Part shown: positions 5,760-47,002 of the stretch, in pieces
Position numbering within the stretch: the first letter of the stretch is position 1
Layout: the number at the start of each line of letters is the position of its first letter
Assembly (NCBI RefSeq): GCF_001189295.1
Contig: NZ_CP012159.1
Span: forward strand, 4,168,525-4,232,524
Direction of reading: 5' to 3'
Origin: Chondromyces crocatus
Lineage (GTDB): Bacteria; Myxococcota_A; Polyangia; Polyangiales; Polyangiaceae
DNA: 64,000 bases
Made by a program: the position numbers and the translations under genes
The notes under the pieces: generated by a model
The model's input: the letters and a program-made list of their open reading frames with translations, nothing else
The model's database searches: none
What the model was told of the DNA's origin: nothing

Positions 5760-6062
5760 GGGCCTCGTGGTCATGCCACCGGCAGTCGACCCAGCCCGTC
5801 CAGACATGGACGACACCGGCGCCGCTCCGGCGCTCAGCGATTCTCTACTCCCTCCCGCATTTCAACCTGCGCGTTGCGTGATTCGTCCCACGAATCGCGC
5901 GCCCTCCGGCGCCCCTCCTCGCTACACCGTGAGTCGACGTGCTTCGCCGCTGCGACACGATGCGCGAGGGCAGCCTCTCCAATGCAGTGAGCAGCAAATT
6001 GCCGCGTCGCGTCATGTGCCATGAACCTGTTCTTTTGAAAGCAACCGCCTTTCAACGCCGAG

Positions 6063-8164: not shown

Positions 8165-8366
8165 CATCCCCAGGGCTGGGGCTCGCACGCTGTTTTCTGC
8201 GCGATGAGCGTCGCGTCCGGAGACGGCAGGGCGAGACCCAGCTCGTCGCACGTGGAGCGCCATGGGGTGAGCCCTCGACGGGCCTGGCGCGTCGGGAAGG
8301 CGGGGGCGTGAGCCCTCGCCCTTGAAATCAGCAGGGACGAGGAAAGCAGCGGGGCAGGAGCGGACT

Positions 8367-9953
8367 ATGTACATCGGAGACTGGATGGACCGCGGAGAGC
8401 GCTACTGGCCCGAAGCGCTCGCCATCGTCGATGCCGCGAAGGGCGAAACGGGACGATTCACCTACCGACAGATGAACCGTCGAGCGAACCGCCTCGCGCG
8501 GTGGCTGAGGGACACCGCCGGGATCCAACGCGGCGACCGTGTCGGCTTCCTCGGCATGAACGGTGTCGAGTGCCTGGATCTGCTCTTCGCGTGCGGCAAG
8601 ATTGGCGCCATCTTCGTCCCCTTCAACTGGCGCAGCCACCCGCGTGAACTCATCGACCTGTTCGGCAGGACCAAGCCGAAGGTGCTCGTGTTCGACGACG
8701 AGTTCCGCGCTGCGGCGAGCGAAGTGCTCCCGTGTGCTCCGAGCGTCACGCACGCCCTCCACCTCGGCGGACCTGGTGTGCGCTGGGCGCCGAGCGATCC
8801 TGGTGGAGATGCCACGCCGGCGATGGCACCGACGAACGACAGCCGACCCTACGAAACGACGCTCGCGGACATCGACGATGGCAGCGTGACCAACGACGCC
8901 GTGGATGCGGAAGACATCCTCCTTCTGCTGTTCACGGGAGGCACGACGGGCCTGCCCAAGGCTGCCCAGATCTCGTACCGGATGGTCGCGTGGAACACGT
9001 TGAACACCGTCATCCACGAGCTTCAGCGAGGTGACGTCACCATCTCCCACACCCCGATGTTCCATACCGGAGGACTCCTCGTTTACACCCTGCCGCTGCT
9101 GACGCTGGGCGGGACGGTGGTGATCATGCGCAAGTGGGGCCCCGAAGAGATGCTCGAGCTCATCGAGCGGGAGCAAGTGTCTCTGCTCTTCTGCGTCCCC
9201 ACGCAGTTCCAGCTCATGATGGATGCGCCTCGGTTCTCGCGGACCTCGTTCCAGAGCGTCCGCTTCCTGACGAGCGGCGGCGCCCCCTTGCCGATCCACG
9301 TCATCCACCGTTACCGGGAGTCCCACGGCGTCGTCTTCAAGCAAGGCTTCGGCATGACCGAGTTCGGTCCCGGCATCTTCTCCATGTCCCCCGAGTTCGC
9401 GGAGACCAAGGCAGGGAGCATCGGCAGACCGAACTACTTCATCGACGCGCGCATCGTGGACGACGAGAGCAACCCTGTCCCCAGCGGCGTCATCGGCGAG
9501 CTGGTCCTCAAGGGCCCCGCGGTCTGCTCGGGATACTTCGAGGACGCCGCAGCGCTACAGCAATCCGTGGATGCTCAGGGGTGGTTTCACACGGGCGACA
9601 TGGCCCGCATGGACGACGACGGCTTCTACTACATCGCCGATCGCAAGAAGGACATGTTCATCTCCGGCGGAGAGAACGTCTATCCCGTCGAGATCGAGCG
9701 TGTTCTCTACCAGATCGGGGCCATCGCCCAGTGTGCCGTCTTCGGTGTGCCCGATGCGAAGTGGGGTGAAGTCGGCCTCGCTGCCGTGGTGCTACGCCCG
9801 GGAACCTCCGTGACCAGCGACGACCTGATCGAGCACTGTCGCGCGAACCTGGCGCGTTACAAGGTCCCGAAGTCGGTCGTCTTCCTCGAGCAACTGCCGA
9901 TCTCCGCAGCCGGCAAGATCTTGAAGCGAGAGCTACGGGACCGCTTTTCCTGA
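8367..9953 (+). CDS. AMP-dependent synthetase/ligase (acyl-CoA ligase)
   Basis: AMP-binding motif LLLFTGGTTGLPKAAQ, then GFGMTEFG, WFHTGDMARMDDDGFYYIADRKKDMFISGGENVYPVEIE and a terminal PISAAGKILKREL. The ORF is open from 8322; the ATG at 8367 is preferred. Confidence 0.8.
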   Translation: MYIGDWMDRGERYWPEALAIVDAAKGETGRFTYRQMNRRANRLARWLRDTAGIQRGDRVGFLGMNGVECLDLLFACGKIGAIFVPFNWRSHPRELIDLFGRTKPKVLVFDDEFRAAASEVLPCAPSVTHALHLGGPGVRWAPSDPGGDATPAMAPTNDSRPYETTLADIDDGSVTNDAVDAEDILLLLFTGGTTGLPKAAQISYRMVAWNTLNTVIHELQRGDVTISHTPMFHTGGLLVYTLPLLTLGGTVVIMRKWGPEEMLELIEREQVSLLFCVPTQFQLMMDAPRFSRTSFQSVRFLTSGGAPLPIHVIHRYRESHGVVFKQGFGMTEFGPGIFSMSPEFAETKAGSIGRPNYFIDARIVDDESNPVPSGVIGELVLKGPAVCSGYFEDAAALQQSVDAQGWFHTGDMARMDDDGFYYIADRKKDMFISGGENVYPVEIERVLYQIGAIAQCAVFGVPDAKWGEVGLAAVVLRPGTSVTSDDLIEHCRANLARYKVPKSVVFLEQLPISAAGKILKRELRDRFS

Positions 9954-10155
9954 TCCAGGCTCCCCGCGAGGCCGCCGACGGAACCACCGCCGTCCCTGCC
10001 GACCCGCTACCCAGACCGTCGGACCATCGTCAGCGACCTGGTCCCCTCGTTTCCAGACCGACACCCCCGTCCCCATCCCTGCACAGCGGGCGCGCTCCCC
10101 TCGGGCTGCAATGATTTCAAAGAGTTGACCCATCTCCTGAAGGAGGTCACCCCCA

Positions 10156-10520
10156 CCTCCTGGAGGAAAACGTCGATGTCCTCCAGGAGCTGGCGATGAA
10201 CCTGGAGGAGGTGCTCCGTCGTCCACCGGGACGAGGCGGACGTCCTGCCGGACGACGCCGAAGTCCTCCAGGAGGTGGGGGTGAGCCTGGAGGAGATGCC
10301 AGGTCGTCCTCGGGGAGGAGGCGGACGCCCTGCCGGACGACGCCGAAGTCCTCCAGGAGGTGGGGGTGAGCCTGGAGGAGATGCTCGGTCGTCCTGGAGG
10401 AGGAGGCGGACGTCCTGCTGGACGACGCGGAGGACCTCCAGGAGATGGCAGCGAACCTGGAGGAGGTGCCCGGTCATCCTGGAGGAGGAGACTGACGGCT
10501 TCCCGAGAGGCGTCGATGTC
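10156..10520. repeat. Tandem direct repeat, 85-bp unit x 4 plus a partial copy; each unit holds the near-palindrome cctccaggagg
   Basis: Units at 10156, 10241, 10326 and 10411 align nearly base-for-base (gacgacgccgaagtcctccaggaggtgggggtgagcctggaggagatg...). 85 is not divisible by 3, so a simple in-frame peptide repeat is unlikely. Confidence 0.8.
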
Positions 10521-11122
10521 CTCCGGGTCAGCCAAGGGTCGCGGGCGTGAGCCCCATGGCGTCGTGAGCCTCCGGTGCGATCATCCCTGGAACTGAATGC
10601 ATTGCGCGCAGACACGGTAATGTCGTGCCAGAGCCAATCGAATTCGTTCATGTTCACGAATGCCATGCATCCGTGCTGACGATGCCGCCCTCCTTCGCCG
10701 CTTTCGTCCCATTCGTACGAATTCCACGGAACGCCGCGCGATCCAGGCCAGCCCGCCACGGACAGGCCTGACGATGCAATCATCACCACCAGCGTACCAC
10801 CGCTTGCCGGATGATCCATCATGCGTCGCGCTGGGCGCGCACGCGTGCGCGTATGGCCCCTTCGCCCGCCGGTTTGCGTCCTTGGCGCTGCGGTCCGGTG
10901 AGACGTCAGAGAAGGTGGGCGCTGGCCATCCGGTCGAAGTTTGCTCGCTCCAGGGCGCGCATCATCTCACCGTGTAGGATAGGACACGGTTGAGGCAGTT
11001 GCTCACTCACCCCAACGCTTTCTGTCTGCGACTGTAGGGTAGGGGAGCATCGTCGGCGTTCTCGCTCCTGGCGAGCCAGCCTTCGCAGGCGCTCACGTCG
11101 ACTCAGGTGCTACACTCGCTTT

Positions 11123-12229
11123 GTGTCGCTGAAGATCGATCAGGACCACGGGCGTTTTCGTCAGATTGTCAGAGGACGAATCCGCCAGAATCTCCGCAAA
11201 TACATCTCGCAGGGGGAGCTCGTCGGTCGGAAGGGGAAGGACCTCGTATCCATCCCCATCCCGCAGATCGACATCCCTCGTTTCCGCTTTGGGGACAAGC
11301 AGAAAGGCGGCGTCGGACAGGGAGAAGGCAACCCTGGCGACCCGGTGAGTGCGGACGACAAGCATCCTGGTCAGGGCCAGGCGGGGTCGGGCGAAGGCGA
11401 ACACATTCTCGAAGTGGACGTCACCCTCGACGAGCTCGCCAGCATTCTGGGCGAGGAGCTCGAGCTTCCCGACATCCAGGACAAGGGAAAGAACAAGATC
11501 TCCAACGCGCACGACCGCTACTCGGGAATCCGGCGCGTCGGCCCGGAGTCGCTGCGCCATTTCAAGCGGACCTATCGTCAGGCGCTCCGCCGCATGATCT
11601 CCAGCGGGACCTTCCGCGCAGAGGCGCCTGTCGTCGTCCCCATCCCCGAGGACAAGCGTTACCGGTCGTGGAAGACGGTCACCGAGCCCGTGGCGAACGC
11701 GGTCATCATTTACATGATGGACGTCTCGGGTTCGATGGGCGACGAGCAGAAGGAGATCGTGCGCATCGAATCCTTCTGGATCGATGCCTGGCTCACCCGG
11801 CAATACAAGGGGCTGGAGTCTCGCTTCATCATTCACGATGCCGTCGCACGCGAGGTGGATCGGGAGACCTTCTTCCACACGCGCGAGTCAGGCGGCACGA
11901 TGATCTCGAGCGCTTACAAACTGTGCGCGCAGATCATCGACAACGATTATCCGCCTGCCGAATGGAACATCTATCCGTTCCATTTTTCCGACGGCGACAA
12001 CTGGTCGATGGACGACACCCTCTCGTGCGTCGACATCCTCAAGAATCAGCTCCTGCCTCGCGCGAACATGTTCGCCTATGGGCAGGTCGAGAGTCCCTAT
12101 GGATCCGGGCAGTTCATCAAGGATCTCAAGGAGCACTTCTCGCAAGACGACCGGGTCGTCCTCAGCGAGATTCGCGACAAGGACGCCATTGTGGGCAGCA
12201 TCAAGGAGTTCCTCGGGAAGGGGAAGTGA
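11123..12229 (+). CDS. yeaH: YeaH/YhbH family protein (DUF444)
   Basis: Conserved C-terminal block [31 protein letters not shown]...[63 protein letters not shown] matches the remembered E. coli YeaH region (MDVSGSM...ETGGTIVSSALKLM...WNIYAAQASDGDNW...). Confidence 0.85.
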
Positions 12230-12240
12230 GCTGAGGCGAG

Positions 12241-13809
12241 ATGAGCAAATTCGCGCTTAAGACAGCCCTGCCACGTTATCTGCGCGCCGAGCAGGAGCGC
12301 ATCGAATCCATCGCCCGCGGATACGGTCTCGATTTCTTCCCGGTGATCTTCGAAATCCTGTCGTACGACCAGATGAACGAGATCGCAGCGTACAGCGGTT
12401 TTCCTAGCCGCTATCCGCACTGGCGCTGGGGGATGGAGTACGAGCAGCTCTCGAAGAGCTACGAGTATGGCCTCTCCAAGATCTACGAGATGGTCATCAA
12501 CAACAACCCGTCGTACGCCTACCTGCTGGAAGGCAACTCGCTGACGGACCAGAAGCTGGTGATGGCCCACGTGTTCGCCCACGTGGATTTCTTCAAGAAC
12601 AACTTCTGCTTCCGCTCCACGGATCTCGACCAGCGTGGAGGCATCGTCGATCCCGTTCGGCGCCCCGGGAAATACGATCCCGATCGACGCTGGATCGACA
12701 AGATGGCCAATCACGGCTCACGAATCTCACGGCATATCGAGCGCCACGGTCTGAACAAGATCGAGGCCTTCGTCGATCAGTGCCTCTCCCTCGAAAACCT
12801 GATCGATCCCTGGGCGCCCTTCAGCGGCAAGCCGCCGCCGAGAGACGAGGAGAGCGAGAACGAGGAGGAGCCGTCGCTCGACGTCTACCGGCTCCGCGCG
12901 AAGCCCTACATGGACGAGTTCATCAATCCGGAAGAGGTGCTCGAAGCGCAACGCAAGAAGCGCCAGGAGCAGAAACGTCCGGAGCGGCGGGTACCCGAGC
13001 AGCCCGAGCGCGACGTGCTGAAGTTCCTGCTCGATCACGCCCCGCTGGAGCGGTGGGAGAGCGACGTGCTCGAGGTCTTGCGGGAGGAGGCGTACTACTT
13101 CACACCGCAGCGCCAGACCAAGATCATGAACGAGGGCTGGGCGAGCTACTGGCACTCCAAGATGCTCACCGAGAAGGTCCTGGATGCCTCCGAGATCATC
13201 GACTACGCGGAAAACAATGCGGGCGTGATGGCCACGGCCCCGGGGCGCCTCAATCCATACAAACTGGGGGTCGAGCTCTATCGCGATATCGAAACGCGGT
13301 GGAACAAGGGGCAGTTTGGTCGAGAGTGGGAGGAGTGTCAGGATCTGGATGCAAAGCGCTCGTGGGACATGCGTCTCGGACTCGGGCGCGAGAAGATCTT
13401 CCAGGTGCGAGCGCTCTACAATGACGTGACCTTCATCGATGAATTCCTCACACCGGAGTTCGTCATCGAGCACAAGATCTACACCTTCGGTTTCTCGGGA
13501 AGAAACGACAGGTACGAGATCGAGAGCCGTGAATTCAAGCAGGTGAAAGAGAAGCTCCTCTTTCAGCTGACGAATTTCGGTGACCCCTACATCCGCGTGG
13601 TCGACGCCAATTACGCGAATCGCGGGGAGCTGTTGCTGGAGCACCAGCACGGCGGTGTCGACCTCCGTGCCGATTACGCCAGGGAGACGCTCATTGCGCT
13701 GGTTCGAGTGTGGAAGCGGCCCGTCGGAATCGCGACACGATTGGAGAATAAGCCGGTGCTCCTCCGGTATGACGGCAAAGAGCACTCGATGACGCCATTC
13801 AAACTATGA
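12241..13809 (+). CDS. spoVR: SpoVR family protein
   Basis: N-terminal [41 protein letters not shown] is the SpoVR hallmark. It directly follows yeaH, the usual operon order. Confidence 0.85.
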
Positions 13810-14260
13810 TTCGGGGGCTCCATTCGGCCTGTGCGGGCACCACGATGCCGCCCGTGAGGCGTCGTTTCACCATGGTCATGAGGTCAGTTCCTCCGCAGAT
13901 CCTCGTGGCGTCCTTGTGGAAAGCCACCGGGACACCGGACCTGAGCCACGTCGCGAGAAGCAGGCCGTTTGGAAATGAGGGCCGATATGGACGCGCTCCC
14001 AGGTTCATGTGAGCAAGATGCCTACATGCTTCCGTGAGTAGTGTCAGGTGTGTTGCTGGGGATACATTGTGGCGTGATGTGTGGCATGCTTGGTGCCTTC
14101 GGACGTGCCATCAAACCGTTCTGGCTCACAGCGGAGCGCGCAGCCGCATGCCGGAATCCGCGCGACACACTCGACGTGGCGACCCTGAACCGGGTAGCCT
14201 GTCCCGGTGCCCTGCCCCGAAGCTGACTTCCCACCGGGGTCGCTGTACACCGAGGCATTG

Positions 14261-25041: not shown

Positions 25042-28000
25042 TCACGCGTCGTAACGGAACGGCGCCCTCGCCTGCGCGTAGGCCTGGATGAGCGCCCGTT
25101 CCTCCGGCGTCAGCTTCACGAAGCGCGCCCCGAAGCCCGGGGGACCCTCCCCACCGGCTGGCCGAGCCCACTCCACGACCCCCATCACCTCGATGGTCCG
25201 CCCCTCGGGGAATGGGATCCGCACGGAGACCGTCGCCCCGCGCGCCGGCGTCCGGTGGGTGGGCACGAAGATCCCCCCTTGCTCGACCACGTCCTGCTCC
25301 GGCCCCGCCTGGTAGAAGTTCGCCGGACTGTTCCCGCCGAGCTTCGCCTCGAACCGCGGCGCTGGCGGCCCTGAGGGTCGTCCCCGGGTGAGTGCTTCCT
25401 TGAGCTTCTCGTCCAGGGAGCGCACCAGCGCCTCGACCTCGCTGAGGTGCTGCTCCACCGCACGGACCCCGAACGCGCTCTGGGTTGCCGACTTCGCGAG
25501 CGGCGCCACCGTCTGCTCCACGATCGACAGGTACTGCGAGACCACCTCGGACACCGAGGTATCGGTCTCCACCTGGACCTCCACCTTCGGCTGGGCGAGC
25601 GACCGCATCGCCGCCGAGAGGCGCTGCAGCTCCGGCGAAAGCCAGCTCTTGAGATCCCGCTCCTTCGCCCCGTCCTGGCTCGCGGTGACCGCGCCCCCGA
25701 TCGCCCCCCGGATCCCTTCGAGCTGCTCCGCCAGCATCGTCAAGGTCCCCGTCACCCGCACCACCGGGTCGTCGTCCTTGCCGCCCATCCGCTTGATGCG
25801 CTGGAAACCTCGCTTGATCTCGTCCCAGCGCGCCTCCTGCTCTGCCGAGAGCCTCCCCCGCATCTCGGCCAGCTTCAGCAGGTTCTGCTCCGCGCCGCTC
25901 GTGAGCGTCTGCGACTCGCTCGTGTAGTGGTCGTCCACCAGCCGGTCGATTTCCGCGTCCGTGTGCGCCGAGACCACCTTCTCCGTGAGCTTGTTCATGT
26001 TGCGGTAGCTGCCTTGCAGCTTGAACGGCGGCTCCGTGCGGAAGGCGTCCTCCTGCGAAGCGCTCCGGATGTACTCCTGGTTCACGGCCAGCAGCACCTT
26101 CTGCACCCGGAACAGGCGCTTCAGCACCTCCACGATCTCGGTGACCTCCGCCGCCGAGTAGGCGTAGCTGAAGTCCGTCGACGCGACCTCCTCCCCTTGC
26201 GCCAGCTTGACGAACCGATGCACGTCCGCCGGCTCTCGCCCTGCGAGCGGGGCGAGGGTCGGGTTCGACGTGAGCGCGTTCTCCAGGTAGCTCAGCGCGA
26301 AGATCGACTCCTTCCCGTCGAGGATGTCGCCCAGGTTGTACGTATCGGCCCGGTTCGAGAGCATGTCGGGGATCTGGAACCGCGCGCCGGACTCCGTGTA
26401 CGGGTTACCGGCCATCACCACACAGAACTTCTTCCCGCGCAGATCGTAGGTCCGCGTCCTGCCGCGCCAGACGCCCTCGATCCGCCGCTGCGCGTCGCAC
26501 AGCGAGATGAACTTCTGGAGCAGCTCCGGGTGCGTGTGCTGGATGTCGTCGAGGTACAGCATCACGTTGTTCCCCATCTCCAGCGCCAGGTTGATCTTCT
26601 CCACCTCTTGCCGCGCCGTCGCGTTGGGCGCCTCGGAGGGATCGATGGAGGTCACGTCGTGCCCCAGCGACGGGCCGTTCACCTTCATGAACACGAGCCC
26701 CAGCTTGCTCGCCACGTACTCCATCAGGGTCGTCTTGCCGTACCCGGGAGGCGAGATCAGCAGCAGCATGCCCATCAGGTCGGTGCGCTTCCCCTCGCCG
26801 GCCGACCCGAGCTGCTTCGCCAGGTTCGCGCCGATGAGCGGCAGGTACACCTCGTCGATCAGCCGGTTGCGCACGAACGACGTCAGCACCCGGGGCGAGA
26901 ACTCGTCGAGCCGCAGTCGCTGCTTCTCACGCTCCACGATCTCCGAACGCAGCTTGCGGTAGGCGCGGTAGCGGGGCATCCGCTCCCGCATCATCTCGCC
27001 CACCCGTGCGAGGAACTCGTCGAGCCGCAGCGTCAGCGCCCGCTCCCGGATGCGCGGGTGTTGCCCCAGGAGCCCCTCGACCCGCGCCTCCACCACCGCC
27101 GCGCTCGGCTCACGATCGAGCCGTCGCTCCGTCACCAGCACCACCGCGGCCTCGCGCACCAGGTATCCCAGGTGCGACCGCTGCGCGTCCCTCGACACGA
27201 ACGCCTCGAGCCAGGCCTGGGCCAGTGCGAGCTGCGCCGCGGGCTGAGGTTCGAGCTGCCGCAGGTCCTCTTCCAGCGCCCCGCGTCCGCCCTCCAGGTC
27301 CAGGTGGGCGAGGAGCGCGTCCCGCAGCTCGAACGCCCCTGTGCTCGTCACGAAGCGCGGATGATCGGCGCACAGCTCCTCCACCAGGTAGCGCGCCGAG
27401 AGGCGCACCTCTCCCTTGCCCGGCTCGATACCATGCGCCTTGGCGGCAGCTTCCACCGCCTGCTCCACCTCGGACGCCAGCGCATCCAGCGCCGACCCCG
27501 AGCTGCCCGACGGCTTCGCTTGCGGCTTCGACGCCTCCGGATCCTCCGCGACCGTCGCCTTCGCCTCCAGCTTCACGGCGACCTCGAGAAGCTGCGCCCG
27601 GAGCCGCCCCAGGCTTCGCGCCCGCCGGTGCAACACCTCCCGCGCGGCCGGCGCCATCGACGCCCAGCACAGGCACCCCAGGGCCCGCGCCCCGCTCGAA
27701 TACCGCAAGAGCCCCGCGGTCGACCGCAGCGCCAGCAGCTTCTCCAGGATCAGCGCGGTATCCCCATCGTGCACCCCGCGCTCGTAGCCCTCATCGTGGC
27801 GCTCGGCCGAGAAGGTCCGCACCACCGCGAGCAACCCCTCGTTCGGCCCTTGCGCCATCCTTCCCGTCGGACCCGCGTCCGACACCACCGACAGCGCCGC
27901 GTCCCGCAGCCCGGCGATGGACAGCCCCGCGCGCCCCGCCTCGGCATCCTCCAGCATCGACAGCGCCAGCAGCTCGCCGCGGTACACCTCCGCCGTCTCG

Positions 28001-30774
28001 CTGACCAGCTGCTGATCCCACAGCTCCCGCGCCGCGTTCAGCGCCGGATCGTCGATCGTCTCGAAGAAATCCGTGCCCGTCAGGTGCAGCGACAGCGCCC
28101 CGTGCTGCGGCACCAGCGTCAGCTCCAGCGGCTGCGTGTTCACGTTGAACTTGTGCCGCCCCAGCCGGATGACGCTGGTCCCCTCTTCGAACAGGTCCTC
28201 GCGATCCCGGAGCAGCCGGTGCGCATCCTGACGCGCCGACTTCAGCCGCGACTCCACCTCGTCGCTCTTGACCGAGTCCCCGAGCTTCGACAGCTCCCCG
28301 GCAAGATCGCGCACCTTCGCGACCATCGGGTCCGTCGCGAAGTAGGCGTTCAGCTCGTCCGCGTTCGCAAAGCTCCGCGCCCGCCGCACGACCCCTTGCA
28401 GGATCCTGTCGGCCGCGCCCACGAGGTTCTGGACCCGCCGCTGCCGCTCGTCCACGAGCTGCTGCCGCCGCGCCCCGATCGCCTCGTTCACCTCTTCCCG
28501 CTTCGCCGCCAGCTCCGAGAGGAACTCGTCGAACTCGCCGAAGCGCCCCTCCAGCTCCTCCAGCTGCACGAGGAGCTTCGACAGCTCGGTGTCGCACCGC
28601 TCCGGCGTGTCGCAGGCCGCCGCCGCGCTCGCCACGCTCTGGCCGAACAGCTTGAACTGCGCCCCGAACTCGGCCCGTCCCTCGGCCCCGCGGAGATCCC
28701 GCGTCCTCGCGTTCAGGATCGCCCGCGCCCGGTTGAGCTGCGCGTAGACCTCGCTCACCCCTTCCAGGATCCGCGTGCGCGCCGTCGGATCGTCCACCTT
28801 CAGCCCGGCCACGATCTCGCTGAGCAGCGACAGGCCGTCGTTCACCCCGTCGAGGTCTGCCTTGAAGGGCTGAAGCTCGCTCGACTTCTTCACCCCCTCG
28901 ATCTGATCCACCAGCGCGCCCAGCCGGTCCGTCAGCGGCTTGAACGCCGCGTCCCCCAGGAGGAACGCCGCCGCCGCCGCGCTCACCTCGTCGAACCGCG
29001 CGACGACCTCGGCCTCCAGCGCGTCCACCCGCGGGAGGTCCATGTACTTCAGCTCGCGCATCGTGATCAGGTGCCCGCGCTGCTTCCGCAGCTCCGTCAG
29101 CGCCCGCATGAATGCGTCCACGCTCTGCAGATCGTCGGGCCGCAGCCCCGACAGCACCCGCCGCTGCGTCTCGTCCGCCTCGGCCAGCGCCTGCGCCGCC
29201 CTCGCCCGGATCGCCTCGACCTTCTCGAACTCGTCGATGATGCTCTCGGCGACCTTGCGCAGCTCGCGCACCACCGTCGAGAGATCGCCTGCCTCCTCGT
29301 GACCGAGCCAGTAGTAGGCGTCGACCATCCGATCGCAGGTCTTGATCACGTCCTCGAAGGTCAACCGCGTCGGCTGCTCGCCCACGCAGAGCCGCCGCAA
29401 GCTGAGCGCCTCCGAGATCCCCCGCACGAGATCCGGGTTCCCCACCTTCGCCAGGTACGACCCGTCCGTCGGCACGGACGCCGCGTACTCCGCCGTGGTG
29501 AACGGCGTCTGCCAGATCTGCATCGGGTGGACGCGCGTCGCCTCGTCGCCCGTCGCCCGGAAGATCACCATCTTCCCGTCATCGAACAGGCTGTACCCGT
29601 GGCAAGGGATCGGCGTCGCGATCTCCTTCCGGATCACGTTGTACGGGAAGAGCAGGTACCTTCCGTCCGACAGCCGGTGGAAGACGTAGAGCACGTCCTC
29701 CCCGTTCGGCGACCGGATCACCCGCTCGAACAGCAGATCGTCGGCGCGCTCCTCGAACTTCTTGCTCTCCCCGGTGAGCAGGTAATACCCGTTCGGGAAG
29801 ACGATGCCCTGATCCTCGGGCAAGGTGAGGCAGGCCTGCCCGATCGCATCGAGCCGCGTCACCTTCTTGAGCCGGCTGTTGTAGACGAGGTAGCGGTAGT
29901 CCTGCTCCCGGAACGGCTTGATCTTGAGCAGGATCAGCGTCCCCAGCTTCGCGTACCGGATCTCCGCGTCGTCGAGCCCCTGGTTCGCGTCTTCCACCGG
30001 CTCGCTGTAGATCCCGAGCCCCGACGCCGTGTTGTTCTCCACCTTGACGGTCAGGTCACCGCCCACCGTCTCCACGAAGATCTCGTCGAGGATCGACACG
30101 TGCGGGTGCTTCCCCGCCACCTGATCCTCGCGCGTCGTCGCCTTCCACTCGAAGTCGTGCGAGCGCGGCCGGAGGTTGTCGTTCTCCCCGCGCCCGTCCA
30201 TGTACTTGATCCGGCCGGAGCCATCGACGCTCCACCGGAACACCTTCACGTCCCGCTCCGTGCTCCCCGTCTGGAAGATGGCGAGCAACCGCGTCTCCGT
30301 GCGCCGGAGTTGCAGGAGCCGCGTCTCCTTCGTGTAGCGGAACAGATCCTTGAAGTCCTTCACGAAGGCTGGATCCGCGAGGAACGCCTCCCCCTCCTCC
30401 AGCGGCACCGGCGCGAAGTCGTGCCCCTCCGCCGTCTGCGTGAAGCGGTGCAGCGCGAACACGTCGCTCACCTGCGCGTCCTGCTTCAGGCCCAGCACCA
30501 CCAGGTAGCCGACCAGCAGCCGCCCGCGGATGCTCACGATGTCCCGCGGGACGCAGTTGTGCTCGGTCCGGATCCGCTCGGTGGCCACGAGCTGCAGCTC
30601 CGTCCCACCGAACGCCTGCTTCCGGCGCTCGTTCAGCGTCTCGGCCTTCTTGCCGAGCGTCTCCGCGTGCTCGAGCAAGCGCCGGCGGATGACCTCGTAA
30701 CTCCCGCCCTCCAGGGCCTCCGCGCCACTCGACGCGGAGGCACCGGCGGCGGCCTCCGGTGCCTTGGATGTCAT
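25042..30774 (-). CDS. Giant (1910 aa) AAA+ ATPase (AAA_5/MoxR-dynein-like) with long coiled-coil regions and a C-terminal PilZ-like domain
   Basis: Single uninterrupted frame. Walker A LLLISPPGYGKTTLMEY, Walker B NVMLYLDDIQ, then CVVMAGNP. The last ~90 aa (RTPARGATVSVRIPFPEGRTIEVMGVVEW...GFGARFVKLTPEERALIQAY) look like a PilZ beta-barrel; the RxxxR-like RTPAR is present, DxSxxG is not obvious. Starts 90 bp downstream of flotillin-3 on the same strand. Confidence 0.7.
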   Translation of the reverse strand: MTSKAPEAAAGASASSGAEALEGGSYEVIRRRLLEHAETLGKKAETLNERRKQAFGGTELQLVATERIRTEHNCVPRDIVSIRGRLLVGYLVVLGLKQDAQVSDVFALHRFTQTAEGHDFAPVPLEEGEAFLADPAFVKDFKDLFRYTKETRLLQLRRTETRLLAIFQTGSTERDVKVFRWSVDGSGRIKYMDGRGENDNLRPRSHDFEWKATTREDQVAGKHPHVSILDEIFVETVGGDLTVKVENNTASGLGIYSEPVEDANQGLDDAEIRYAKLGTLILLKIKPFREQDYRYLVYNSRLKKVTRLDAIGQACLTLPEDQGIVFPNGYYLLTGESKKFEERADDLLFERVIRSPNGEDVLYVFHRLSDGRYLLFPYNVIRKEIATPIPCHGYSLFDDGKMVIFRATGDEATRVHPMQIWQTPFTTAEYAASVPTDGSYLAKVGNPDLVRGISEALSLRRLCVGEQPTRLTFEDVIKTCDRMVDAYYWLGHEEAGDLSTVVRELRKVAESIIDEFEKVEAIRARAAQALAEADETQRRVLSGLRPDDLQSVDAFMRALTELRKQRGHLITMRELKYMDLPRVDALEAEVVARFDEVSAAAAAFLLGDAAFKPLTDRLGALVDQIEGVKKSSELQPFKADLDGVNDGLSLLSEIVAGLKVDDPTARTRILEGVSEVYAQLNRARAILNARTRDLRGAEGRAEFGAQFKLFGQSVASAAAACDTPERCDTELSKLLVQLEELEGRFGEFDEFLSELAAKREEVNEAIGARRQQLVDERQRRVQNLVGAADRILQGVVRRARSFANADELNAYFATDPMVAKVRDLAGELSKLGDSVKSDEVESRLKSARQDAHRLLRDREDLFEEGTSVIRLGRHKFNVNTQPLELTLVPQHGALSLHLTGTDFFETIDDPALNAARELWDQQLVSETAEVYRGELLALSMLEDAEAGRAGLSIAGLRDAALSVVSDAGPTGRMAQGPNEGLLAVVRTFSAERHDEGYERGVHDGDTALILEKLLALRSTAGLLRYSSGARALGCLCWASMAPAAREVLHRRARSLGRLRAQLLEVAVKLEAKATVAEDPEASKPQAKPSGSSGSALDALASEVEQAVEAAAKAHGIEPGKGEVRLSARYLVEELCADHPRFVTSTGAFELRDALLAHLDLEGGRGALEEDLRQLEPQPAAQLALAQAWLEAFVSRDAQRSHLGYLVREAAVVLVTERRLDREPSAAVVEARVEGLLGQHPRIRERALTLRLDEFLARVGEMMRERMPRYRAYRKLRSEIVEREKQRLRLDEFSPRVLTSFVRNRLIDEVYLPLIGANLAKQLGSAGEGKRTDLMGMLLLISPPGYGKTTLMEYVASKLGLVFMKVNGPSLGHDVTSIDPSEAPNATARQEVEKINLALEMGNNVMLYLDDIQHTHPELLQKFISLCDAQRRIEGVWRGRTRTYDLRGKKFCVVMAGNPYTESGARFQIPDMLSNRADTYNLGDILDGKESIFALSYLENALTSNPTLAPLAGREPADVHRFVKLAQGEEVASTDFSYAYSAAEVTEIVEVLKRLFRVQKVLLAVNQEYIRSASQEDAFRTEPPFKLQGSYRNMNKLTEKVVSAHTDAEIDRLVDDHYTSESQTLTSGAEQNLLKLAEMRGRLSAEQEARWDEIKRGFQRIKRMGGKDDDPVVRVTGTLTMLAEQLEGIRGAIGGAVTASQDGAKERDLKSWLSPELQRLSAAMRSLAQPKVEVQVETDTSVSEVVSQYLSIVEQTVAPLAKSATQSAFGVRAVEQHLSEVEALVRSLDEKLKEALTRGRPSGPPAPRFEAKLGGNSPANFYQAGPEQDVVEQGGIFVPTHRTPARGATVSVRIPFPEGRTIEVMGVVEWARPAGGEGPPGFGARFVKLTPEERALIQAYAQARAPFRYDA

Positions 30775-30863
30775 CGGCGAAAACCTCGGCTCCCCGCGGG
30801 GAGCCCCCTACGAACCGAACCGAACACGCCTCCCCGACGGGAGCCCGCCACGAACCGAACCGA

Positions 30864-33137
30864 TCACGCCTGCGGGGGCTTGCCCAGATCGTCGATTCCC
30901 AGCTCGCGCGCCTTGTCCGCCAGCGCCTGGATCTGCTTGCGGCTCTCCGGATCGCTCGCCCCGCCCACGAGGCGCCCGAGCAGGTCGGAGAGGCTCGGCG
31001 CCGGCGCGCTGCCGGGCCGGTTCACCACGTCCTCGAACAGCGTCTTCACCGTCGCGCTCTGATCGATCACGCCGTCGACCGTCTGTCCCAGCGTCACCGC
31101 CTTCATGAAGCGATCGAAGAAGGCCCCATCGCCGCCGACGATGTTGATCTTCGCCGAGGAGAAGGCCGACCGGATGATCTCCGACTGCGCCCGCGCCACC
31201 TCGACCCGGGTCCGGATCTGCTCCAGCTCGATGAGCTTCTCCTTTTCCAGCCGGAGGCGGAACTCCTCGTGCTCGCGGCCCAGCCCATCGAGGGCCTTCA
31301 TCGCCGCCGCCTTCTCGGCCGTACCGGAGGCTTCTGCCAGCAACCGCTCCTTCACGGCGGTCGCCTCGGCAAGACCCATCTTCTCCTTCGACGTCGCCTC
31401 GGCGAGGCCCATCTTCTCCGTTGCGACCGCTTCGGCCTCGCGCGCCTTTGCCGCGGCCAGCCCGCGCTGTTCGATGCCGGTGGCCTCGGCGAGCAGCTTC
31501 TCGCGCGCCACATTGGCCTCCGCCAGCCCGCGCTTCTCCACGCCGGTGGCCTCGGCGAGCAGCTTCTCGCGCGCCACGTTGGCCTCGGCGAGTCCCTGGC
31601 GCTCGATGGCGGCGGCGTCGGCCTCCCGGACCTTCACCCGCACCATCCCCTGCTTCTCTTCGCCGCTGGCGGCGGCCTGCAGCTTCTCCAGCGTCACCCG
31701 GGCCTCGGCGAGCCCCGTCTTCTCCAGCGCCGCCGCGTCGGCCTCGCGGATGCGCACCTTCGCCAGCCCCTCGGCGGCGGCCTCGGCCTGCACACCCTCG
31801 GCGATCCGGATCTTCGCCCGCGTCGCCTTGTCGCTCGCTTCCAGCTCCGCGTCCGCGGTGATCACCTTCTCGCGGGCCCGGAACTTCGCGGCTTCCTCGC
31901 TCGCCTCGGCCGACTTGAGCTGCTTCACGAGCTGCTCTTGCGCCTCGGCCTCGGCGTTGATCCGCGTCACGTCCTTCAGGCGGTTCGCCTCGGCGACGGC
32001 GCGGACGTCCTTGATCCGCTCCTCTTCCTCCGCGACCGTCTTGTCCACCGAGATTCGCCCACGGATCACATCGGCGATCTCCTTGCGCTGCTGCTCCAGC
32101 TCCTTCTCGCGAGCGATCTGCTGCAGCGACACGTCGCGCTCACGCGCCACGACCTCGAGCTGCTTCGCGCGCTCCACGCGCTCCGTCTCCACCTGGATCT
32201 CGCGCACCTTGGCGCGCTCCGCGATGGCGATCCCGCGCTCCTTGGCCTCCCGCGCGACCCGGGCCTCCTCCTCGTTCTTCTCCTTCACGAGCAGGGTCTT
32301 CTTCTCCTCCTCGCTCGCGACGCGGGCCGCCTCGTTCTCCTCGCGGCTCTGCGCGATGGAGATCTCCTTCTTCGCCTTCGCTTCGGCCTCGGCGCGCCGG
32401 TGCTCGAACTGGAACACGGCCTCGTCGGCGTGCAGGTTCTGGCTCCCGATCTCCATCCTCTCCTTCTGCCGCAGCTCGTTGGTGAGGATGTTCTGGATCA
32501 CCGTCAGATCGGTGATCTTCTTGATGCCCTCGGCATCCATGATGTTGTCTTTGTCGAGGGCCTCGAGCGGCGTCTGCTCCAGGTAGTCGATCGCCGCGTC
32601 GTCGAGCACGAACCCGTTCAGGTCCTTGCCGATGACGTCGATGATGTCGTCCTTGAACTGCTGGCGCTCCTTGTAGAGATCCTCGAAGTTCAGCCGCTTA
32701 CCGACCGTCTTCAGCGCCTCGGAGAACTTCGCCGTGAACAGGTCCTCCAGCGTCTTGTGGTCGGACGCGCGTGCGCACCCGATGGCCTGGGCCACCTTGA
32801 GCACGTCCTCCTGGGTCTTGTTCACCCGCACGAAGAACGTGACCTTGATGTCCGCGCGGATGTTGTCCTTGCAGATCAGCCCTTCCTTGCCGCGGCGGTC
32901 GATCTCCACCGTCTTGACCGAGATGTCCATGATCTCGGCCTTGTTGATGATCGGGTAGACCACCTTCCCGGTGAAGGTGACGATGGGCTCGGTCTTCATC
33001 GTGTTGATGATCAGCGCGCGGCCTTGTTCCACCTGCCGGTAGAACTTGGCGACGATGAGCAGGGTGCCAAAGACCGCGAGCGCGATCAGGCAGATGACGA
33101 CCACGAACGGAAGGTACTGCTCCAGGCTCTGGGGCAC
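30864..33137 (-). CDS. Flotillin / SPFH family protein, paralog 3 (757 aa, long EA-rich coiled-coil repeats)
   Basis: N-terminal TM LPFVVVICLIALAVFGTLLIV, SPFH core (PIVTFTGKVVYPIINKAEIMDISVKTVEI), repeated GLAEANVAREKLLAEATG units, and a C-terminus like the other two flotillins. Confidence 0.85.
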   Translation of the reverse strand: MPQSLEQYLPFVVVICLIALAVFGTLLIVAKFYRQVEQGRALIINTMKTEPIVTFTGKVVYPIINKAEIMDISVKTVEIDRRGKEGLICKDNIRADIKVTFFVRVNKTQEDVLKVAQAIGCARASDHKTLEDLFTAKFSEALKTVGKRLNFEDLYKERQQFKDDIIDVIGKDLNGFVLDDAAIDYLEQTPLEALDKDNIMDAEGIKKITDLTVIQNILTNELRQKERMEIGSQNLHADEAVFQFEHRRAEAEAKAKKEISIAQSREENEAARVASEEEKKTLLVKEKNEEEARVAREAKERGIAIAERAKVREIQVETERVERAKQLEVVARERDVSLQQIAREKELEQQRKEIADVIRGRISVDKTVAEEEERIKDVRAVAEANRLKDVTRINAEAEAQEQLVKQLKSAEASEEAAKFRAREKVITADAELEASDKATRAKIRIAEGVQAEAAAEGLAKVRIREADAAALEKTGLAEARVTLEKLQAAASGEEKQGMVRVKVREADAAAIERQGLAEANVAREKLLAEATGVEKRGLAEANVAREKLLAEATGIEQRGLAAAKAREAEAVATEKMGLAEATSKEKMGLAEATAVKERLLAEASGTAEKAAAMKALDGLGREHEEFRLRLEKEKLIELEQIRTRVEVARAQSEIIRSAFSSAKINIVGGDGAFFDRFMKAVTLGQTVDGVIDQSATVKTLFEDVVNRPGSAPAPSLSDLLGRLVGGASDPESRKQIQALADKARELGIDDLGKPPQA

Positions 33138-35971: not shown

Positions 35972-38140
35972 ATGACGCCGCCTTCCACACCCCGACCTCC
36001 GCTCACCGCCGGTATGGTCATCGCCGACAAGTACCGGCTCCTTCGCCACCTCGGCACGGGCGCCATGGGCGTCGTCTGGGCGGCGATCAACGAGGCGACC
36101 GGGCGAGAGGTCGCGCTCAAGCTCATCGTCGCCCCGGTCGATGCTCTGCGTCGCCGGGTCGAACGCGAAGCCCACGCGTGTGGAGCCCTCCGCCACCCCA
36201 ACATCGTCGACATCTACGACGCGGTGCACACCGCCGAGGGCGATCCCGTCCTGGTCCTCCAGCTCCTCCAGGGAGAGACCCTCGCCGATCTCCTCACGCG
36301 CCGTCGCCGTCTCGAACCCGAACTCGCCGCCCACATCGGCCGCGAGATCGCCGCGGCCCTCACCGCCGTCCACGCCCTCGGGATCGTCCACCGCGATCTC
36401 AAGCCCGCGAACATCTTCCTCCACCGCGAGCACGACGGCGGCACCCCCGTGGTGAAGGTCCTCGATTTCGGCGTCAGCAAGCCAGCGCCGGGGAGGACGC
36501 CGGTCTGCACCGCGCCAGGCGACGCCGTGGGCTCACTGCCCTACATGAGCCCCGAGCAGGTCCGCGCCGCCGTCGACGTCGACCTCCGCGCCGACATCTG
36601 GTCGCTGGGCGTCGTGCTCTTCGAGATGCTCACCGGCGAGCGCCCGTTCCAGGGCAACTTCAGCGAGATCGTCCTCCAGATCCTCCAGGGCCAGGTCCCG
36701 CGCGTCAGCCGCTACGTCCGCCACGTCGACCCGGAGTTCGTCGACCTCGTCGCGGGCTGCATGCGGCGCCAGCGCGAGCTGCGCCTCGGCCCCGCCGAGC
36801 ACATCGTCCGGGGCCTCGATCGCCTCGTTGGCGACGTCGACCCCTGGAGCCTCCCGCTCGGGACCACGGCGCCGAGGCGCTCCGAGGCCGAGCCCTGCCC
36901 GGAGCTCCACCGCCAGCACACGCCCGTCTGGAACACGACGTTCGCGCGCTCCACCTCTCCCGGATGGCCCGCCGCGCAGCCACCCGCCTCCGACCGACCG
37001 CGCGAGACCCTCTTGCCCGATCAAGATCGCGTCCGCACCCGCATCGGCTTCGCCGATCCCGCGCCCTGGCGGCTCAACGCTGCCGAATTTTCCGACGCGC
37101 CCCCCCTTTCCTGGCCCGAGCACGAACCGCCCGGCCTGCCAGAGCCCCCGCCTCCGCTGCGCCAGTCGTACTCCTCCCTGCCGGGAGCGCAGCGCCGCGT
37201 CGCCTGGGAAGTGCCGCCCCCGGCCGAACCCGACCCCCAGCGCAACGCCTCGACCTTCGGGAGCGATGCCGACCCGCTCGTTCACACCGGCCCCCGCGGC
37301 GTCGCAGCCTCCTCGGCCGAGGCCGAGCTGCCCACCCGCGCGGAGCGCACCTCGCACCTCCCCGATCTCTCGCGCATCTCCGCGATACCGAGCTCGTTGA
37401 GCGACCGCGCGACGCAGAACAGCCGGACCAGCATCGGCTCCATGTCGGTCCCCGACAGCCGCCGAAGCCTCACCGCCCGCTTGCCTGGGCTCACCACCCA
37501 CTGGCGCGGCGCGCTCTTCATCTCCACCATCGCCACCTTGCTCGCCGCTGGCGCCGTCTCGGCGCTGATCTCCGCGTTCCCGCTGGGAACCCAGGCCGAA
37601 GCTACCCTCGACGCCGACGCCGACGGCGACGCCGAGGCCACCGGCCCCGAGCTGCCGGCCCTCGCCGAGCGATGCCCCGTGCCCACGCTCGGCGCCACCC
37701 CCGCGCGCCCCTCGCGCCCGCTGCGCGTGCCCGCCGCCCTCGCCGCGACCACCCTCGTCGCCATCCCACCGGGCCCCTCGAACGAACCCGAGAGCGACGC
37801 GCTCACCGAGCCCGCCCCTCCACCTCCAGCCCCTGATCAGGCCGAGGCCCGCGCCTCCACCGAGGCCCTCGAGCCCTCGATGTCGGATGACCCCCCCGCA
37901 TCCGAGCCCGCGACCGCGCAGGCCGATGCCACCACGCAGGCCGGCGCCTCCGACGCGCCCGCCACGCCGCGCGCCTCCAGAGGACCCAGCGCCTCGGCCT
38001 TCAACGCGGCACCCATCGCCTCGAAGAGCAGCCGCGCCGGTGCCGCACCGATGCCGCGCGGCGCCACGCCCTCGCGCTGCGTGAACCCGCAATTCCTCCA
38101 GCGTGCCCGCTGCAGCAAGCAGCCACCGGGCCGACGCTGA
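35972..38140 (+). CDS. Ser/Thr protein kinase with Pro/Ala-rich tail and one TM segment
   Basis: YRLLRHLGTGAMGVVWAA...EVALKLI...HALGIVHRDLKPANIFL...VKVLDFGVSK...SLPYMSPEQ. A TM helix sits near residue 500 (ALFISTIATLLAAGAVSALISAF). Confidence 0.85.
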   Translation: MTPPSTPRPPLTAGMVIADKYRLLRHLGTGAMGVVWAAINEATGREVALKLIVAPVDALRRRVEREAHACGALRHPNIVDIYDAVHTAEGDPVLVLQLLQGETLADLLTRRRRLEPELAAHIGREIAAALTAVHALGIVHRDLKPANIFLHREHDGGTPVVKVLDFGVSKPAPGRTPVCTAPGDAVGSLPYMSPEQVRAAVDVDLRADIWSLGVVLFEMLTGERPFQGNFSEIVLQILQGQVPRVSRYVRHVDPEFVDLVAGCMRRQRELRLGPAEHIVRGLDRLVGDVDPWSLPLGTTAPRRSEAEPCPELHRQHTPVWNTTFARSTSPGWPAAQPPASDRPRETLLPDQDRVRTRIGFADPAPWRLNAAEFSDAPPLSWPEHEPPGLPEPPPPLRQSYSSLPGAQRRVAWEVPPPAEPDPQRNASTFGSDADPLVHTGPRGVAASSAEAELPTRAERTSHLPDLSRISAIPSSLSDRATQNSRTSIGSMSVPDSRRSLTARLPGLTTHWRGALFISTIATLLAAGAVSALISAFPLGTQAEATLDADADGDAEATGPELPALAERCPVPTLGATPARPSRPLRVPAALAATTLVAIPPGPSNEPESDALTEPAPPPPAPDQAEARASTEALEPSMSDDPPASEPATAQADATTQAGASDAPATPRASRGPSASAFNAAPIASKSSRAGAAPMPRGATPSRCVNPQFLQRARCSKQPPGRR

Positions 38141-38324
38141 GCCTTCCGCGGAGGTGAGAGGCCCTCTCCGCGCCTCCCGCGCAGCGCACCTCGTCGTGGA
38201 CCACGCCGCGGGCGGCGCTGCTGCAACGGACACACCCGCGCCTCCGCTGCACCTCGGTGCAGAAGCGGAGCCGTAGACGAACGCTTCGACGGCCACCGGA
38301 CGTGGCCCAGGGGGGAAGACGACC

Positions 38325-39113
38325 ATGAGACACGATGGATGGAAGCAAGCCTGGCTGGCCATGCTGGCCGGCGCGGCACTCCAGATCTCCAGCACGGTGC
38401 TGCAAGGGTGCGTGCTCGACAACCAGGGCACGTGTGACGATCAAGGCCGGTGCGTCGGCAAGTCCGGCCGACCCGGCGGCGAGGCCGGGCCCGACTTCGG
38501 CACGCCCTCGAACCCCTCCGGAGGATCCGCCCAGCAGCCCACGAGCGAGCTCCCTGGGCAGCGGCCCCAGGGCCTCTGCTCCTCGAGCTGCGACGACGGC
38601 AACCCGTGCACCGACGACACCTGCGACGACGCCCACCAGTGTCACCACGACCCCGCGATCGACGGCACCCCTGCCGGTGTCGGCGGCTGCCTCGTGATGA
38701 CCTGCCAGTCCGGCATCGCCCGCCCAGCCGAGCCCCTCGAGCCCTTGCCCGCTGGCGTCTCGTGTGGCGAAGACAAACGTTGCGATGGCGCCGGCCACTG
38801 CAAACTCGCCCTCGGTGGCTCCTGCGACGACGACGCGGCCTGCGCCAGCGGACACTGCGTCGCCGGCGTCTGCTGCGGCCTGGCCTGCGACGGCCTCTGC
38901 CTGCGCTGCGACCCCGCGGATTTCGATCAATGCCAGCCCCTCGCCTTCGGCGAGCACGACCCCATGTGCTCCGAGGCGTCTGCCTGTAACGACGCCGGCG
39001 AGTGCAAGCTGGTCGACGGGACGGGGTGCATCTCCGACGGGCAGTGCCTGAGCGGCCACTGCACCGCGCTGGGAGAGCCGAACAGCCCGTTCCGTTGCGC
39101 TCCCGTGCCCTGA
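38325..39113 (+). CDS. Secreted cysteine-rich repeat protein
   Basis: Signal peptide AWLAMLAGAALQISS. About 30 Cys in repeated motifs such as CDDGNPCTDDTCDDAHQCHHDP, GSCDDDAACASGHCVAGVCCG and TGCISDGQCLSGHCT. Confidence 0.5.
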   Translation: MRHDGWKQAWLAMLAGAALQISSTVLQGCVLDNQGTCDDQGRCVGKSGRPGGEAGPDFGTPSNPSGGSAQQPTSELPGQRPQGLCSSSCDDGNPCTDDTCDDAHQCHHDPAIDGTPAGVGGCLVMTCQSGIARPAEPLEPLPAGVSCGEDKRCDGAGHCKLALGGSCDDDAACASGHCVAGVCCGLACDGLCLRCDPADFDQCQPLAFGEHDPMCSEASACNDAGECKLVDGTGCISDGQCLSGHCTALGEPNSPFRCAPVP

Positions 39114-39407
39114 GCGCCCCTCCCGGAGCCTGCGTGACCAGAACCTGGGTGTCACACAGGCTCCCTCGACGCGCCCTGGTGCGTGAGCGCGGGGCCGTGT
39201 GCCGGTTCTTCCGACGCGCGGTGCGGTGATGCCCGCGCTCGTGGGCAGCGTGGAGCGACCGCCTCGACGTGGTCGGTGACGCTCCTGCCTGCCTGCGCGC
39301 GCGCCGCCTCTTGGGCCGGCGAGCGACGCATCCTTTCGAGAATGGAGTGGGAGTCCGAACGAAGTCCTGCGCGGAGCGAGCGATCCCGCCCGCTCCAGCG
39401 CCAGCGC

Positions 39408-42023: not shown

Positions 42024-42511
42024 GCGTCTCCTCCGACACGGGCTGCCCGGTCATCGTGCTTCGGGCCCCGGAGCAGCCCTGCCCCCCCGGGGGAATGGAC
42101 CGGACCATTCGCGCCCGAGCAGACCTCTGGAGGGTCGGCGCAGCCGCGATAGCCTACCGTGGACTCCGATGACCGAGCCCCCGCCAGCGCTCGCTCGGAC
42201 CCACGCAAATCGTTCGCACCATGCAGCGCGTCCCGAACGGGGAAACCGCCATGAATCGCGAGCCAGCGCACCGATTGACAGGCCTGTTCGTCGTGCGCGT
42301 CCCCCCCGTCCACCGAGGTCCGCCGCGAGCGGCGCGAGCGACGGCCGCGACGCTCCTGCGCGGAGGAGACGGGCGCCCGGGCGTGGATGACGAACAGGGG
42401 ACGAGAGGACGAGGACGGGGATGGGGACGGGGACGGGTATGGGGACGAGAGGGATGCGTCAGCGAGCGCAGAGAGGTGGGTGAAGCGTCGCGCTCGCTGA
42501 CGGGGGGCCGA

Positions 42512-43492
<981 letters not shown>

Positions 43493-43761
43493 GAGACATT
43501 CCTCCGGAAACTACGTCGGCCGGAAATCGACCGCGCAGCCCTGGAATAGGCACGCCCCGAGCGGTTCGCCATAACAGCCTATTTCAGTCTATTTCAGTCT
43601 GTAACACCGGGCGATACGTGACATTGCATCATAGAGGGAGAGGTGCGTGCTTCGCCTACGTCTCCTGACCATCGCGCCAGCGACACGCGGGGATCGGTTC
43701 GAGAGAAATTTCGAATGGTTGCCGGCAGAACGGCTGTCGACGGGCCGGGTCGAGGTCCGTT

Positions 43762-45445: not shown

Positions 45446-45531
45446 GCCAGAAACGTAGCACCGGCCACCGGCCTTTCTCGTCCAGTCGGTCCTGGCGCGG
45501 CGGGCACCCTGGCCCTACCTTCGAGAGCTGC

Positions 45532-46983: not shown

Positions 46984-47002
46984 CGTCAGGGCCCCGTCGC
47001 GC

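Follow-up and report, generated by a model that had tools for sequence, protein, structure and literature searches.

The spacer between an acyl-CoA ligase gene and the yeaH-spoVR gene pair of Chondromyces crocatus Cm c5 harbours an array of 85-bp tandem repeats. It lies within 64,000 nucleotides of contig NZ_CP012159.1 (positions 4,168,525 to 4,232,524 of the forward strand), here called the window, to which all coordinates refer. The array is probably, though not beyond serious doubt, a lineage-specific non-coding minisatellite in an unusually long and fast-evolving spacer of this strain. As such, it is a further example of the known bacterial intergenic minisatellites. A previous sequence-only reading had been more ambitious: it saw in the region a structured small RNA, a riboswitch-like leader or a platform of regulatory sites for the stress- and sporulation-associated pair yeaH-spoVR. 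Most likely, however, the array has no sequence-specific role in the control of yeaH-spoVR. This operon has a conserved extended -10 element of its own at the start codon.

The repeat itself is well defined. Tandem Repeats Finder (TRF) reports it at 10170-10497 with a period of 85, 3.9 copies, 86% matches, 0% indels and a score of 432; the four or so 85-bp units that had been announced are real. A second repeat search delimited the array to 10159-10498 and added, as a vestige, a fifth partial copy of 17 nt (10511-10527). With its decayed edge units, the minisatellite widens to 10136-10560, no strand being assigned, and comprises five 85-nt registers that begin at 10136, 10221, 10306, 10391 and 10476. 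It does not sit just behind the ligase gene, as had been stated, but starts about 180 nt past the stop codon of the latter (9951-9953). In the register from 10136, identity is 93% between units 2 and 3, and unit 4 is 81-84% identical to these two; the values are about 66% for unit 1 and 41-58% for unit 5. Central units that are alike and edges that have decayed are expected from replication slippage or unequal recombination. The units abut without any spacers, which excludes an array of clustered regularly interspaced short palindromic repeats (CRISPR). A minisatellite has head-to-tail units of 10-100 bp at a non-coding, extragenic location, and both are found here.

Each unit has an inner structure. 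TRF detects a nested 21-bp periodicity at 10229-10443 (10.1 copies), and one unit consists of four 21-bp modules, about GnCCTSnnGGAGG..., plus 1 nt. The modules are rich in the triplets CTC and CTG (Leu) and GAG (Glu). CTC and GAG are mutual reverse complements, and the modules are therefore inherently dyad-symmetric. This symmetry accounts for the palindromes CCTCCAGGAGG and for strong folding on both strands. The palindrome is exact in two units (at 10265 and 10350) and has one mismatch in the remaining ones, in line with the near-palindrome that had been noted in every unit. With up to one mismatch allowed, 11 of its 15 matches in the window fall inside the array, while 2.65 would be expected for the window as a whole.

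The 5' head of the array carries an inverted partial copy of the repeat-unit core (10131-10167, minus strand), an 86% reverse-complement match to 10349-10383. Together with unit 1, this copy forms a near-palindrome at 10147-10199, not assigned to a strand, with 26-nt arms that are 81% complementary and 1 nt between them. An inverted fold-back duplication at 10131-10167 was probably the seed of the array. Tandem amplification and partial homogenisation, be it by replication slippage or by unequal recombination, would then have followed.

Nothing of this is shared with relatives. The comparison comprised 80 related yeaH loci of Polyangiaceae (L001-L080), about 1 Mb of DNA, and both the array and the unique spacer downstream of it are absent from all of them. 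The upstream spacers of yeaH in these relatives usually measure 50-350 bp. The closest genome to hand is that of C. apiculatus DSM 436, with 97% identity in YeaH. There the adjacency of ligase and yeaH genes is kept, yet the spacer is about 212 bp long versus 1,170 bp in C. crocatus Cm c5. When 9938-11107 was compared with C. apiculatus, nothing aligned; in an explicit alignment, the common part was confined to the last ~25 nt before the start codon. A second copy of the 85-bp unit was found neither in the 64-kb window nor in the 80 loci. Phage and plasmid collections gave no match to array or spacer, and an exact degenerate-pattern scan of metagenome contigs gave none either. A looser hairpin pattern retrieved 120 isolated single hits from metagenomes, which chance or coding sequence can account for, and not one array. 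Two more ligase homologues from metagenomes did not help: one contig (L081) breaks off with the ligase gene, and downstream of that gene the other (L082) continues differently. Tblastx without composition filter yielded compositional noise only. As far as the data reach, the array region thus appears to be private to C. crocatus. The comparative alignment that the sequence-only reading had recommended speaks against a conserved regulatory region. That reading would have yielded to a region both unconserved and untranscribed, and the former is what was found. A literature search on myxobacterial leaderless mRNAs, C. crocatus genome repeats and repetitive elements of M. xanthus produced nothing relevant.

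Does the array encode a protein? Its unit length is 3n+1. In a plot of GC by codon phase, the 3-base periodicity of the array is as strong as that of real genes, but its phase advances by +1 every 85 bp. Real genes in the same plot show a GC of 0.8-0.94 at third and of 0.35-0.45 at second codon positions, and the region 10500-11100 is flat. A codon-like periodicity that changes frame with each unit implies that no frame encodes a repeat protein. A unit can be read as 28 sensible codons with a C left over, e.g., VLGEEADALPDDAEVLQEVGVSLEEMLG. The array is not open in all six frames, as had been claimed: TGA occurs in each plus-strand frame (at 10197, 10282, 10367 and 10493), one minus-strand frame is stopped at 10476, and only two frames, both on the minus strand, run through. 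A frame-corrected peptide of 144 residues had no homologue at E ≤ 0.01 among 5.8 billion proteins, and a profile of the unit (30 columns) no hit at E ≤ 0.001 among 1.84 billion representatives. A known protein repeat family was rejected on these grounds. Protein-coding tandem repeats have one open frame and a period divisible by 3; 85 is no such period. The view that this period argues against a protein repeat is thereby upheld.

One of the open minus-strand frames has nevertheless been annotated. CMC5_031600 (10007-10822, minus strand, “uncharacterized protein”) is an open reading frame (ORF) of 271 codons that runs across the array. It is an ORFan: its sole hit in the database of 5.8 billion proteins is itself, it has no paralogue there, and no Pfam domain matches. 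Its GC contents at codon positions 1/2/3 are.63/.60/.71, those of the flanking genes.61-.63/.36-.46/.81-.83, and its unique, non-repeat N-terminal part is flat (.62/.57/.64). The product is rich in Ser, Arg, Gly and Pro, as are off-frame translations of high-GC DNA. By these statistics, CMC5_031600 is most likely a gene-calling artefact. The 3n+1 unit, the lack of homologues of the corrected peptide and the flat codon statistics of the ORFan together support a non-coding array, as far as sequence can tell.

The coding alternatives have to be weighed against this background. The array might be the remnant of a gene for an acidic repeat protein with Leu/Glu repeats of 28 residues (84 bp), which suffered a 1-nt insertion in one unit that then spread through the array by concerted evolution. 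Such a relic would explain why the units read as sensible codons (VLxEEADVLPDDAEVLQEVGVSLEEMxG plus one C), why, as in genes, GC peaks at codon positions 1 and 3 and dips at 2, and why the plus strand has a GC skew of +0.22 to +0.25. However, neither the corrected peptide nor the unit profile has found a relative, a start region and flanking coding signals are missing, and C. apiculatus has nothing homologous at the same position. In Sorangium and Polyangium, a Cys-rich protein with 81/84-bp repeats is encoded next to yeaH, and the spacer yields no match to a hidden Markov model (HMM) of it. We therefore give the relic a small, if real, chance. That CMC5_031600 is a genuine young protein-coding gene is very improbable. 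The ORF is long, open across the array and annotated in the genome; against this stand its ORFan status, the missing Pfam match, its codon-position values with their flat unique part, its off-frame-like composition and the fact that its frame fits the periodicity of the units in only about one unit in three. Scarcely credible at all is a unit copied from the adjacent yeaH gene. It is true that the best blastn hits in about 1 Mb of related DNA lie in yeaH, at nt ~280-340, in eight loci (E = 0.002-0.86), and that about 13 of 28 residues are identical by eye. Yet the hits do not include yeaH of the window itself or of C. apiculatus, an HMM of the unit scores YeaH ORFs at E = 0.7-25 only, and 20 of 150 codon-shuffled arrays equal the best blastn score (p ~ 0.13). 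For the yeaH region alone, a region picked after the fact, 2 of 150 did so. In view of the HMM and codon-shuffle results, yeaH was rejected as parent of the repeat.

The Cys-rich neighbour deserves a remark of its own. In Sorangium, Polyangium and a related metagenome-assembled genome (L002, L003, L006-L009), yeaH has a divergent minus-strand neighbour, whose product is a secreted Cys-rich protein with repeats of 27-28 residues, seen by TRF as periods of 81/84 bp. In Chondromyces, the lipid operon with the ligase gene takes the position of this gene upstream of yeaH. A relic of the Cys-rich gene was considered and rejected, since the protein HMM has no match in the window, spacer included.

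The case for a structured RNA looks no better. At gathering thresholds, Rfam has no match anywhere in the window; in E-value mode, it returns sub-threshold noise of the miRNA type (best score 27 bits versus a threshold of 268, for a plant miRNA model). A search for tRNA and tmRNA genes found none, and a known RNA family was rejected accordingly. The array as a whole does fold better than shuffled sequences, with z = -5.7 on the plus strand and z = -6.5 on the minus strand. Folding that is equal on both strands points to dyad symmetry at the DNA level, not to a strand-specific RNA. Taken singly, the units do not surpass shuffled sequences (z = -0.35 to -1.4). The sole element to stand out is the head hairpin made of the inverted fragment and unit 1 (10127-10205), with z = -2.76; in the fold of the whole array, the head region pairs with unit 2 as a 21-bp stem. 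No relative has a homologous sequence in which compensatory changes could show, and the stem positions are invariant among the units. The proposed small RNA or riboswitch-like leader was thus not borne out by the covariance-model scan and sits badly with the strand symmetry.

What is conserved upstream of yeaH is short. The extended -10 promoter element TGcTACACT (11108-11116, plus strand) lies 6 nt upstream of the GTG start codon of yeaH (11123). It is the only conserved upstream element and the only block that aligns with C. apiculatus; TGCTA(C/G)ACT is kept in L001-L010. In 37 of 81 loci, a hexamer TAnnnT is found at a distance of 6-9 nt from the start codon; at each other position, the count is about one or less. 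The hexamer [TG]A[CGT][AG]CT at a distance of 4-10 nt is present in 36 loci, 35 of which have no Shine-Dalgarno sequence. The -10-like hexamer reads TACACT or TAGACT, and in the loci of Chondromyces, Sorangium and Polyangium it is preceded by TG. Where yeaH directly follows prkA, AAGGAG replaces it. Scans for the consensus of sigma-70 promoters and of intrinsic terminators came out empty. Judged from this conservation, yeaH-spoVR is probably transcribed as a leaderless mRNA from the extended -10 element. A leader is located between transcription start and start codon; with the putative start implied by the conserved hexamer, there would be no 5' leader left to hold a riboswitch.

The functional alternatives start from the other end of the spacer. 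Its first part, immediately after the ligase stop codon (9954-10135, plus strand), is rich in C and poor in G (44.5% and 23.6%, respectively; C/G 1.88). In this ratio, the tract ranks among the highest 0.8% of 180-nt windows; its GC skew amounts to -0.23 to -0.28, and the best C-rich stretch of 78 nt starts at 10003, with C/G 2.8. By composition, the tract may resemble a Rho-utilisation (rut) site, i.e., a site of Rho loading. The ligase is encoded by the last gene of an operon that also comprises an alpha/beta-hydrolase and KASIII, and this operon points in the same direction as yeaH-spoVR. Tract and hairpin array could then act together as terminator or insulator, which would end or stabilise the hydrolase-KASIII-ligase transcript and shield the yeaH promoter. 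The position of the C-rich tract, the folding of head hairpin and whole array, and the co-directional operons with a putative promoter of yeaH's own are compatible with this idea. Against it, there is no consensus of an intrinsic terminator, C. apiculatus manages with its 212-bp spacer and no array, and one terminator does not need four units. A dedicated terminator or insulator is accordingly rather unlikely. If the array has a function at all, a passive Rho-type terminator or insulator for the upstream operon may be the most plausible one; as a passive effect, a hairpin-rich block after a rut-like tract may help to stop read-through before the yeaH promoter. A related thought is that the array is a functional element that was born recently, in C. 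crocatus only, be it a hairpin-array terminator or insulator, a protein-binding platform or a proto-gene in the shape of CMC5_031600. In the proto-gene version, the 3n+1 repeat could make identical DNA readable in each of the three frames within one ORF. We regard a newborn function of any of these kinds as improbable. At least as improbable is what had been proposed originally, a structured small RNA, an RNA that regulates in cis or a platform with many binding sites for a regulator of yeaH-spoVR, which we would place slightly lower still. Regular dyad-symmetric units could indeed bind a dimeric protein repeatedly, and the unique spacer contains inverted repeats with the half-site ATTCGT (see below). 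The region, however, is unconserved in every related locus and without Rfam match, it folds symmetrically on both strands with units no better than shuffles, and the array is located 626-987 bp upstream of a putative promoter that lies at the start codon.

A non-coding minisatellite does not explain everything with ease. The strong codon-like periodicity, with its G-rich first positions on the plus strand, goes beyond what a random minisatellite would offer. This codon-like texture may hint at a coding ancestry, i.e., at the fossil of a lost repeat gene, although no parent could be traced. The leaderless promoter is deduced from conservation. The clustering of ATTCGT inverted repeats means that the spacer is not entirely featureless. 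Finally, the array is known from one genome and one locus. All these points weigh against our preferred interpretation.

The array has several counterparts among known systems, all of them imperfect. The mycobacterial interspersed repetitive units (MIRU) of Mycobacterium tuberculosis are tandem units of ~40-100 bp in intergenic spacers of a high-GC genome. Like these and other loci with a variable number of tandem repeats (VNTR), the array consists of indel-free head-to-tail units, tens of bases long, in a spacer between co-directional genes of a high-GC genome; homogenised central units, decayed edges and a unit length that is not a multiple of 3 are also shared. MIRUs, in contrast, are a family dispersed over dozens of loci, and their copy number varies between strains, whereas the C. 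crocatus array stands alone in its window. Repetitive extragenic palindromic (REP) sequences and bacterial interspersed mosaic elements (BIME) are short dyad-symmetric extragenic elements at the 3' ends of genes, which can stabilise or terminate transcripts. The array, too, is dyad-symmetric, extragenic, downstream of an operon and able to form hairpins on either strand. REP units, however, measure ~20-40 nt, recur in hundreds of copies per genome and lie in alternating orientations; the present array is a single direct one of 85-bp units with one inverted head fragment. With the Cys-rich coding repeats of Sorangium and Polyangium, the array shares a period of ~28 codons, a codon-like periodicity inside the unit and a location upstream of yeaH, at a distance of a few hundred bases. 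Yet all other long-period arrays found in the related loci have periods divisible by 3, while this one is 3n+1, is stopped in four frames and has no similarity to those genes. Riboswitches, 5' leaders and the small RNAs of Rfam resemble it in being intergenic, upstream of an operon and endowed with predicted hairpins. The array differs from them in lacking an Rfam match, conservation and strand-specific folding, and the presumed promoter at the start codon would leave no leader.

The remainder of the spacer is unique sequence. From 10531 to 11107, again without assigned strand, it shows no 3-base periodicity, has 3-7 stops in every frame and folds with z = -1.75. It had been described as markedly low in GC and rich in palindromes. 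Neither description holds. The GC content of 10531-11122 is 0.632, and the window averages 0.681 ± 0.053; some 18% of stretches of that size score as low, and lower values are found in yeaH (0.604) and spoVR (0.593). Hairpins of 6 bp number 4 versus 1.8 ± 1.7 in shuffled sequences, and direct repeats matching at 11 of 14 positions number 6 versus 2.8 ± 3.2, a density that was reached in 6 of 60 shuffles. The individual motifs that had been listed do exist. The hairpin ATTCGT-N8-ACGAAT is found at 10642-10661; in addition, there is a perfect 12-bp palindrome, ATTCGTACGAAT, at 10711-10722; neither is assigned to a strand, and both inverted repeats of this segment (10642-10722) have the half-site ATTCGT in common. 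The imperfect direct repeat TGTAGGATAGGACA / TGTAGGGTAGGGGA occupies 10973-11046 on the plus strand, its copies, TGTAGG(A/G)TAGG(A/G)(C/G)A, starting at 10973 and 11033, 60 nt apart; it is absent from the spacer of C. apiculatus. Inverted repeats of the type ATTCGT-N(0/3/8)-ACGAAT occur three times in the window versus 0.01 expected, all of them in the spacers that flank the hydrolase-KASIII-ligase operon. Their spacings differ (0, 3 and 8 nt), and none was found upstream of yeaH in C. apiculatus or any other related locus. The third copy (5881-5895) lies upstream of the hydrolase-KASIII-ligase operon, within a hairpin with an 11-bp stem, GCGTGATTCGT-CCC-ACGAATCGCGC. As to signs of mobile DNA, the edges of the spacer have no terminal inverted repeats, and none of the spacer ORFs has a Pfam domain. 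With no phage or plasmid match in addition, an origin from an insertion sequence, a miniature inverted-repeat transposable element or a prophage remnant was rejected.

In itself, the array matters little. It is a minisatellite of a single genome, with no demonstrable function. Of practical use is that CMC5_031600 can be flagged as a probable annotation artefact and that the array is a candidate VNTR marker for strain typing of C. crocatus. There is also a lesson for screens: modules that resemble Leu and Glu codons, CTC and GAG, automatically yield palindromes and apparent RNA structure, a trap in the search for structured RNAs in high-GC genomes. The more useful by-product is the apparent leaderless yeaH-spoVR mRNA, read from a conserved -10 element in those Polyangiaceae in which yeaH is uncoupled from prkA. 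The putative leaderless promoter offers a testable handle on the regulation of a poorly understood stress and sporulation pair.

As for the surroundings, the acyl-CoA ligase gene has the AMP-binding domain (8322-9953), yeaH belongs to the DUF444/YeaH family (11123-12229), and spoVR covers 12241-13809; these neighbours had been named correctly. Downstream of spoVR follow a methyltransferase gene and a partner-switching cluster of SpoIIE, STAS and anti-sigma-kinase genes. The spacer after spoVR measures ~340 bp in the window (13810-14145) and ~1.7 kb in C. apiculatus (L001, 8680-10389). Both flanks of yeaH-spoVR thus differ in length between the two Chondromyces species, which marks them as prone to indels. 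The block that is conserved with C. apiculatus from 14146 onward is coding, with mismatches distributed over the three codon phases as 127/52/211.

A second minisatellite, younger-looking than the first, is found elsewhere in the window. It is a near-perfect intergenic array of 14.5 copies of a 22-bp unit, CGGTCCTGGGTAGTTGCTCAAG, at 43768-44084, with 95% matches. The long ORFs that flank it have no Pfam domain, and a 10-bp repeat of 2.6 copies lies just upstream (43575-43600). A 40-bp x 2 tandem repeat at 30790-30871 (88% matches) falls within a short spacer; the genes on either side (25042-30774 and 30864-33137) are very long and lie on the minus strand. About 9 kb of the window (38000-47000) are filled with long overlapping ORFs on both strands; they have no Pfam domain, and few pass the codon-bias filter. 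A Ser/Thr kinase gene is located at 35972-38140.

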